This document shows, one piece after another, positions 1,850 through 1,998 of a stretch of DNA of 64,000 nucleotides. The first letter of the stretch is position 1; every line of letters starts with the position of its first letter. Source of the stretch: Escherichia coli (GTDB lineage Bacteria > Pseudomonadota > Gammaproteobacteria > Enterobacterales > Enterobacteriaceae); NCBI RefSeq assembly GCF_044324785.1, contig NZ_CP172127.1, one strand, 5' to 3'. Position numbers and translations under genes: made by a program. Below the pieces are notes generated by a model. It had not been told where the DNA came from, made no database searches, and saw nothing but the letters and a program-made list of their open reading frames with translations.

Positions 1850-1882
1850 TGAACAAATGTATTTCTGTTTTTAATTTGTTCA
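1850..1882. promoter_or_regulatory. Inverted repeat TGAACAAAT-N15-ATTTGTTCA, candidate operator (possibly LsrR)
   Basis: Perfect 9-bp inverted repeat read in the sequence just upstream of lsrA; regulator assignment is inference. Confidence 0.3.
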
Positions 1883-1982
1883 TAACCTTAGGTGGACATT
1901 GCACATATTTCCGACGAATAGATCACAATTTATGCTATTTTGATTTTCATGGTTGCGTTTGTTCATACTCGTAGAGTCAAAC

Positions 1983-1998
1983 TGTGGTTGCCATCACA
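1983..1998. promoter_or_regulatory. CRP-like site TGTGGTTGCCATCACA
   Basis: Close match to TGTGA-N6-TCACA; the lsr operon is known to be cAMP-CRP dependent. Confidence 0.45.

Follow-up and report, generated by a model that had tools for sequence, protein, structure and literature searches.

Conserved LsrR and CRP elements predicted in the divergent lsrA-lsrR control region of an Escherichia coli strain

Introduction

LsrR represses the lsr operon and itself through two boxes in the lsr promoter region, and phospho-AI-2 releases the repressor (Hauk et al. 2016, PMC5137460). The p-lsrA-box and p-lsrR-box come from Xue et al. (2009, Cell Res 19:1258) and the CRP sites CRPI and CRPII from Wang et al. 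(2005, J Bacteriol 187:2066), and both sets are taken here as redrawn by Hauk et al. (PMC5137460), whose Fig. 2 legend gives the order of elements as p-lsrR-boxes, then CRPII, CRPI and finally the p-lsrA-boxes. In the same account the p-lsrR-box extends from -237 to -197 relative to the lsrA start codon, and the motifs AACAAT and AAGATTTAA, relayed there from the footprints of Xue et al. and separated by TGCATTA at -214 to -208, are reported as being needed for LsrR binding. LsrR binding that is reversed by phospho-AI-2 is in the literature for both the lsrA and lsrR promoters of K-12, and a 2026 J Bacteriol paper treats binding at the two promoters as established (PMC13393413). The lsr promoter has been reported to be weak and activator-dependent (Hauk et al. 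2016, PMC5137460), cAMP-CRP is required for lsr expression (bioRxiv 10.64898/2026.06.09.730415), and conservation of the CRP sites across Enterobacteriaceae has already been reported. This control region is thus known in E. coli, ordinary and well studied.

LsrR has been solved as a SorC/DeoR-type tetramer (PDB 4L5I, 4GO1) and is homologous to Bacillus subtilis DeoR, with E = 5e-28 to the PDB 8R7Y chain and 159 bits to the NCBIfam DeoR model. The DeoR tetramer binds the 39-bp dra-nupC-pdp operator ATTGAACAAAATTTCAATTACCAATTTACATATGTTCAA (ATTGAACA...TGTTCAA), with each dimer reading one outer element and a weaker inner one (PMC11229326; PDB 8R7Y).

Here we examine the lsrA-lsrR spacer in a 64,000-bp stretch of Escherichia coli DNA, which we refer to as the window. 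A sequence-only reading of the spacer had proposed that a perfect inverted repeat is an LsrR operator and that a near-consensus CRP-like motif is a CRP site; both motifs are real and the interpretation is supported, but box 2, CRPI (1909-1930) and a central half-site had been overlooked. We consider it very probable that the spacer corresponds to the standard Escherichia control region for the lsr (autoinducer-2 uptake) regulon, acted on by LsrR and cAMP-CRP.

Results

The spacer lies between the divergent lsrA and lsrR open reading frames, with the features assigned to it and to its flanks collected in Table 1, and the gene order lsrC-lsrA / lsrR-lsrK-autotransporter is identical in the RefSeq annotation of matching E. 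coli genomes. The spacer is carried by 4,171 of 5,426 complete E. coli genomes at 95-99% identity, with identity of at least 99% in only 4 of 4,178 matching genomes. E. coli K-12 has the same locus, the same gene order and a 248-bp spacer, with all half-sites and both CRP cores identical to those of the window. Between K-12 MG1655 and the window the spacer is 98% identical and differs by five SNPs (window/K-12: 1868 T/C, 1950 T/C, 1967 A/G, 2009 C/A and 2042 G/A), of which 1868 falls in the inner part of box 1 and 2042 in the inner part of box 2, while none of the five touches a half-site or a CRP core. In this strain the canonical lsr switch is intact, repressed by LsrR and activated by cAMP-CRP, and the SNPs avoid the recognition elements. 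At position 1868 the window strain has T, and C is found in K-12, E. coli O158:H23, E. whittamii and Escherichia sp. E1V33; the change, CTGCTTTTA to CTGTTTTTA, is at the counterpart of the box 2 motif AAGATTTAA.

Table 1. Features of the lsrA-lsrR region (window coordinates, except for the last three rows, which give positions in the respective loci)
Feature	Position	Strand	Description
lsrA	283-1818	minus	ORF list and NCBIfam equivalog LsrA, 951 bits (above cut-off)
lsrA-lsrR spacer	1819-2066		248 bp, between divergent ORFs
LsrR box 1 (lsrA-proximal; dyad of the sequence-only reading)	1850-1882	plus	TGAACAAATGTATTTCTGTTTTTAATTTGTTCA; half-sites TGAACA 1850-1855 and TGTTCA 1877-1882
Putative lsrA -10 TAAGGT	1885-1890	minus	Predicted start ~1878, in right arm of box 1
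CRPI	1909-1930		TTCCGACGAATAGATCACAATT; good half-site GATCACA 1921-1927, poor half CGACG, centre 1919.5
Central third-box remnant	1933-1965	plus	ATGCTATTTTGATTTTCATGGTTGCGTTTGTTCA region; only right half-site TTTGTTCA (1958-1965) intact in Escherichia
CRPII (site of the sequence-only reading)	1983-1998		TGTGG-TTGCCA-TCACA, 9/10 core matches, centre 1990.5
LsrR box 2 (lsrR-proximal; published p-lsrR-box)	2018-2050	plus	TGAACAATTGCATTAAAGATTTAAGTATGTTCA
Putative lsrR -10 AACAAT	2020-2025	plus	Predicted start ~2032
lsrR	2067-3020	plus	ORF list and NCBIfam equivalog LsrR, 618 bits (above cut-off)
lsrK	3099-4691	plus	ORF list and NCBIfam equivalog LsrK, 1001 bits (above cut-off)
Candidate third box, Salmonella (L025)	1364-1396
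Candidate third box, Kluyvera (L026)	1370-1402
Candidate third box, Serratia (L012)	2370-2402

The inverted repeat that had been proposed as an LsrR operator is present inside the 248-bp spacer as TGAACAAAT (1850-1858), a 15-nt gap and ATTTGTTCA (1874-1882), and using a repeat finder we saw it extend to arms of 13 nt with 92% complementarity. Such a repeat is weakly surprising when taken alone, since a perfect 9-bp inverted repeat with a gap of 0-30 nt was obtained in 944 of 20,000 dinucleotide shuffles of the spacer (4.7%) and about 20 of them are present in the 64-kb window, and the signal comes instead from repetition of the box. The repeat finder reported box 1 and box 2 as 33-nt direct repeats that are 73% identical and 168 bp apart from start to start, and the exact pattern TGAACA-N21-TGTTCA has only two matches in 64 kb, both of them in the spacer (1850-1882 and 2018-2050). 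When one mismatch was allowed there were three matches in 64 kb against 0.24 expected. Likewise, a position weight matrix (PWM) built without Escherichia ranked box 2 first (29 bits) and box 1 second (25 bits) among the ~128,000 window positions. The remaining one-mismatch match, at 37104-37136, fell outside the top 15 matrix scores and was treated as chance.

With the lsrA ATG at window position 1818, the published p-lsrR-box motifs map exactly, with AACAAT at 2020-2025, TGCATTA at 2026-2032 and AAGATTTAA at 2033-2041, all within box 2. For box 1, correspondence with a footprint is based on the Fig. 2 legend order (PMC5137460), which places a 'p-lsrA-box' where the dyad 1850-1882 lies, and on the 33-nt similarity to box 2. 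We strongly infer, from this secondary source and from sequence logic, that the dyad would be the footprinted p-lsrA-box. The proposal of the dyad as an LsrR operator is thereby supported by the TGAACA-N21-TGTTCA pattern and 73% identity that it has in common with box 2, by the element order of Hauk et al. 2016, and by the invariant columns described below.

The near-consensus CRP-like site that had been noted, TGTGGTTGCCATCACA, is present within the spacer at 1983-1998. Its motif is at chance frequency in the window, where TGTGA-N6-TCACA with at most one mismatch was found three times against 2.0 expected, and when that expectation is scaled by 248/64,000 bp about 0.008 such matches would be expected inside the spacer, so that the significance of CRPII comes from its location there and from its conservation across genera. 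The same 16-mer, read on the opposite strand as TGTGATGGCAACCACA, is the top E. coli FIMO match to CRP (p = 8.7e-7), while CRPI is listed as AATTGTGATCTATTCGTCGG, equal to window 1909-1930, with an E. coli FIMO p of 3.8e-5, and equivalent CRP sites are predicted in Salmonella too (Table S4, bioRxiv 10.64898/2026.06.09.730415). The 16-bp core match and conservation in orthologous promoters, with invariant columns in 13 genera, support 1983-1998 as a predicted CRP site, and the earlier assignment holds up.

Using a scan of representative genomes with LsrR, together with eight loci found through LsrR homologues, we assembled lsrA-lsrR pairs in divergent orientation from 16 Enterobacterales genera. 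An alignment of 13 genera gave a mean column identity of 62% for the spacer, and the invariant columns were concentrated in the boxes and CRP sites: GAACAAA (1851-1857) and TGTTC (1877-1881) in box 1; GAACA (2019-2023), TG (2026-2027) and GTTCA (2046-2050) in box 2; TCAC (1923-1926) in CRPI; and TG (1983-1984) and TCAC (1994-1997) in CRPII. Elsewhere, invariance was confined to a pair of cytosines immediately upstream of lsrA and to four scattered single columns. The G and A of the CRPI motif GATCAC were conserved in at least 90% of this alignment, and the CRPII core kept 7-9 of 10 matches across genera at a fixed distance from box 2. Inner positions of the lsr boxes were conserved as well, with TGAACAA[A/T]TG..TT on the left and [A/T][A/T]TGTTCA on the right.

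Box 1 was detected in all 16 genera and box 2 in 14, being absent or weak in Photorhabdus and Morganella. Among the 15 loci in which box 2 was detected, 13 had 27.5 bp between the CRPII centre and the start of box 2 and Pantoea had 26.5 bp, and the value of 36.5 in Enterobacter reflects a mis-picked site, inspection giving 27.5. The offset of CRPI from box 1 was likewise fixed, at +71 to +76. Two rigid modules free of indels make up the spacer, box 1 / TAnnnT / CRPI and CRPII / box 2, with indels only between the central region and CRPII. Box-to-box distances were 168 bp in Escherichia, Citrobacter, Enterobacter and Brenneria, 166-167 bp in Salmonella, Kluyvera, Serratia, Edwardsiella and Mangrovibacter, and 163-165 bp in Pantoea, Buttiauxella and Atlantibacter, with 285 bp in one Buttiauxella that has an inserted repeat element. 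Strict helical phasing of the boxes was rejected, as their spacing varies among genera, and phasing that is only approximately kept is weak evidence. The Salmonella enterica lsr region has the same divergent lsrA/lsrR arrangement with boxes 166 bp apart, and its CRPI (GATCACG) and CRPII (TGTGGCGTTAATCACG) lie at equal offsets.

In Photorhabdus and Morganella the best box 1 match was in the opposite orientation and there was no clear box 2 upstream of lsrR, while the central box and the CRPI half-site were retained; LsrR autoregulation may be arranged differently in these two genera. In Buttiauxella sp. A111 (2270-2393 of its locus) a 123-bp insertion separates CRPI from the remaining spacer and takes the box-to-box distance from 163 to 285 bp. 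This insertion contains CACCCCAGTCACTTACTTGAGTAAGCTCCAGGGGATTCAC, presumably resembling an ERIC (enterobacterial repetitive intergenic consensus) element.

Each CRP site lies at the same distance from a candidate -10 element, with 29.5 bp from the CRPI centre to the first base of TAAGGT and 29.5 bp from the CRPII centre to the first base of AACAAT. At a class II CRP promoter CRP is centred at -41.5, which is 29.5 bp upstream of the first -10 base. On the lsrA side the T1, A2 and T6 positions of the -10 element were kept at an equal offset from box 1 in nearly all genera (TAAGGT, TACCGT, TATGTT, TACGCT and TACCAT). On the basis of these distances at both CRP sites, and of conservation, we propose that lsrA and lsrR have divergent CRP-dependent promoters of class II and that an LsrR box overlaps each of them. 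In this arrangement each CRP site, centred at -41.5, would activate its nearest promoter in class II fashion: CRPI with TAAGGT (1890-1885, minus strand) would give an lsrA start at ~1878, so that box 1 would span about -4 to +29, and CRPII with AACAAT (2020-2025) would give an lsrR start at ~2032, so that box 2 would span about -14 to +19. With the boxes placed over the core promoter and start site, bound LsrR would block RNA polymerase even when CRP is present. A simple scan for sigma-70 promoter and terminator consensus sequences found none in 1750-2150, and the absence of a consensus sigma-70 promoter fits a weak, activator-dependent promoter. Alternative elements can be drawn on both sides. 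TGCAAT (1903-1898, minus strand) is a second possible lsrA -10, and if it were the native element CRPI would lie near -28.5, which does not fit class II, while on the lsrR side a -35 TGAACA (2018-2023) with a -10 near 2042-2047 would place CRPII near -63 (class I).

The repeat finder also matched TTTGTTCATA to the right arm of box 1 at a distance of 83 bp. Leave-one-genus-out and independent PWM scans of each locus placed the third-best matrix match 82-84 bp from box 1 and in the same orientation, where it lies between both CRP sites and abuts CRPI. Scores for this candidate third box were 21 bits in Salmonella (TGAATAAATGAATTTTTAGATGATAAATGTTCA), 18 in Kluyvera, 16 in Serratia, 15 in Izhakiella, 13 in Morganella, 12.5 in Edwardsiella, 11 in Photorhabdus, 11 in Pantoea and 7-12 in Mangrovibacter, with the remaining positions in those 4-6 kb loci scoring below ~1 bit. 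A near-complete dyad, TGAA[T/A]A-N21-TGTTCA, was seen in Salmonella, Kluyvera, Serratia, Edwardsiella, Izhakiella, Morganella and Photorhabdus, and the matrix scans found no third box in Enterobacter, Atlantibacter or Buttiauxella. Whereas S. enterica has a strong central match, that of Escherichia has decayed to a half-site; on the plus strand the remnant in the window scored -10 bits, and on the minus strand it reached rank 6 as a half-site with 1-2 bits. We found no mention of a third LsrR box in the lsr literature searched, the primary footprint paper lying outside that search.

From these scans we suggest, tentatively and with rather more doubt than confidence, that the ancestral enterobacterial lsr region may have had three LsrR boxes ~83 bp apart (~8 helical turns), with the central one between the CRP sites and abutting CRPI. 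If LsrR binds the central box, it could compete with CRP at CRPI as an anti-activator, or it could join the outer boxes in a repression complex of higher order, and if this is true the decay of the central box in Escherichia would mean an AI-2 switch that is looser, or differently tuned, than that of Salmonella.

Discussion

The lsr boxes and the B. subtilis DeoR operator have in common outer inverted TTGAACA / TGTTCAA half-sites, an AT-rich interior and a tetrameric regulator. They differ in the gap between the outer hexamers, which is 21 nt in the lsr boxes and 24 nt in the DeoR operator, in number, with two lsr boxes (and candidate sets of three in some genera) against one DeoR operator, and in the effector, which is phospho-AI-2 for LsrR and deoxyribose-5-phosphate for DeoR. 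Operators of SorC/DeoR-type tetramers measure about 33-45 bp and consist of two half-operators; in keeping with this, the boxes are 33 bp long, have inverted outer elements and lie near a gene encoding a SorC-family regulator. To our knowledge no LsrR-DNA structure exists. By analogy with DeoR, one LsrR tetramer per box would be the natural model, in which each dimer would read one outer half-site and a degenerate inner element ~10 bp away. For the nearly identical K-12 sequence, LsrR, a SorC/DeoR-family repressor that forms tetramers, is reported to bind one box by lsrA and one by lsrR, which here would be the two 33-bp TGAACA-N21-TGTTCA elements, and phospho-AI-2, made by LsrK, releases it from the DNA. 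Looping or cooperation between box 1 and box 2, which could be argued from the box 2 mutations of Hauk et al. 2016 that raised expression in the lsrA direction, was rejected, because the selection strain in that study, LW6, is described as an lsrR knockout.

An operator is not the only way in which the dyad could be read. With a start near 1878-1886 the leader of the lsrA mRNA would carry the dyad as a 9-bp stem, and a 68-nt leader has a minimum free energy of -12 kcal/mol (z = -2.9 against shuffles), which could point to an RNA hairpin at the 5' end that affects stability or translation, instead of or besides a DNA operator. The stem, however, is AU-rich with a 15-nt loop, its arms pair over only 7 bp outside Escherichia, and they are conserved as sequence and not through compensatory change. 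Furthermore, box 2 and the central box contain the half-sites too, invariably 21 nt apart, and the homologous DeoR repressor recognizes TGAACA; we consider the hairpin very improbable. A search of the whole window against Rfam at the gathering threshold gave no match. It could also be argued that the dyad and the CRP-like site are both chance matches in an AT-rich spacer, given how often shuffled spacers contain a perfect 9-bp inverted repeat and that the CRP core pattern occurs at chance frequency window-wide. Against this, both exact copies of the box in the 64 kb fall within the spacer, the half-sites and CRP cores stay unchanged across 13 genera in a spacer that has otherwise diverged, and the sites coincide with published ones; duplication of the box and its conservation exclude the chance reading, to which we give practically no credence.

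Rather than being a class II activator of lsrR, CRPII could act mainly on lsrA from afar, as an upstream site of class I or class III or together with CRPI, with the lsrR promoter further downstream. Published work treats activation of the lsrACDBFG operon as the main role of CRP, a GFP reporter with 217 nt upstream of lsrA, which contains both CRP sites and only the left part of box 2, was CRP-dependent, and for lsrR the pairing of a -35-like TGAACA and a -10-like AAGTAT would leave CRPII near -63. The CRPII centre, however, is 112.5 bp from the inferred lsrA start, which is an unusual position. Since its spacing of 27.5 bp to box 2 is rigid across genera, and indels accumulate between CRPII and the lsrA-side module, the site appears tied to the lsrR side. 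We regard action mainly on lsrA as unlikely, although it keeps appreciable weight, and prefer the arrangement of two divergent class II promoters.

The alternative lsrA -10 bears on published promoter mutations. Hauk et al. (2016, PMC5137460) described the octamer TGTGCAAT as "very close to" CRPI and resembling a CytR half-site, and attributed to that CytR site the up-mutations TGTGCAAT to TGTACAAT and TGTGCAAT to TGTGTAAT, in which TGCAAT becomes TACAAT or TGTAAT and expression rises 8- to 14-fold. They proposed for the lsr promoter a nucleoprotein complex like that of CytR and CRP at deoP2, with which it has in common tandem CRP sites, a sugar-related promoter and a CytR-like octamer. In the window the octamer maps to 1905-1898 on the minus strand, and in the 13-genus alignment it is not conserved outside Escherichia. 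Both up-mutations shift TGCAAT towards the -10 consensus TATAAT, and the creation or improvement of a -10 element would explain them more simply than a CytR site.

By-products of this analysis that may be of modest use in engineering or modelling the lsr switch are a conservation-backed map of every element, a class II model of the two divergent promoters that can be put to the test, a candidate third LsrR box in which Salmonella and E. coli differ, and this plainer -10 up-mutation reading of the published "CytR-site" promoter mutations.

Further from the spacer, the yneO autotransporter gene located downstream is intact in the window and a pseudogene in K-12 MG1655; the window equivalent is an intact ORF of 1,822 aa (5174-10642) that belongs to the ECSE_1600 family of autotransporters. 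A GC-rich hairpin at 10649-10679, 3' of the autotransporter gene, is probably its terminator. Beyond it, between 10708 and 10828, are four TATCC-N8-GGATA palindromes (TATCCGCGATCGCGGATA, TATCCCGTAGAGCGGATA, TATCCCCACTAAAGGATA and TATCCCCTTGAGCGGATA), which sit upstream of an ORF that aligns with hipB of E. coli strain N3 and which we take to be a classical HipB operator array.
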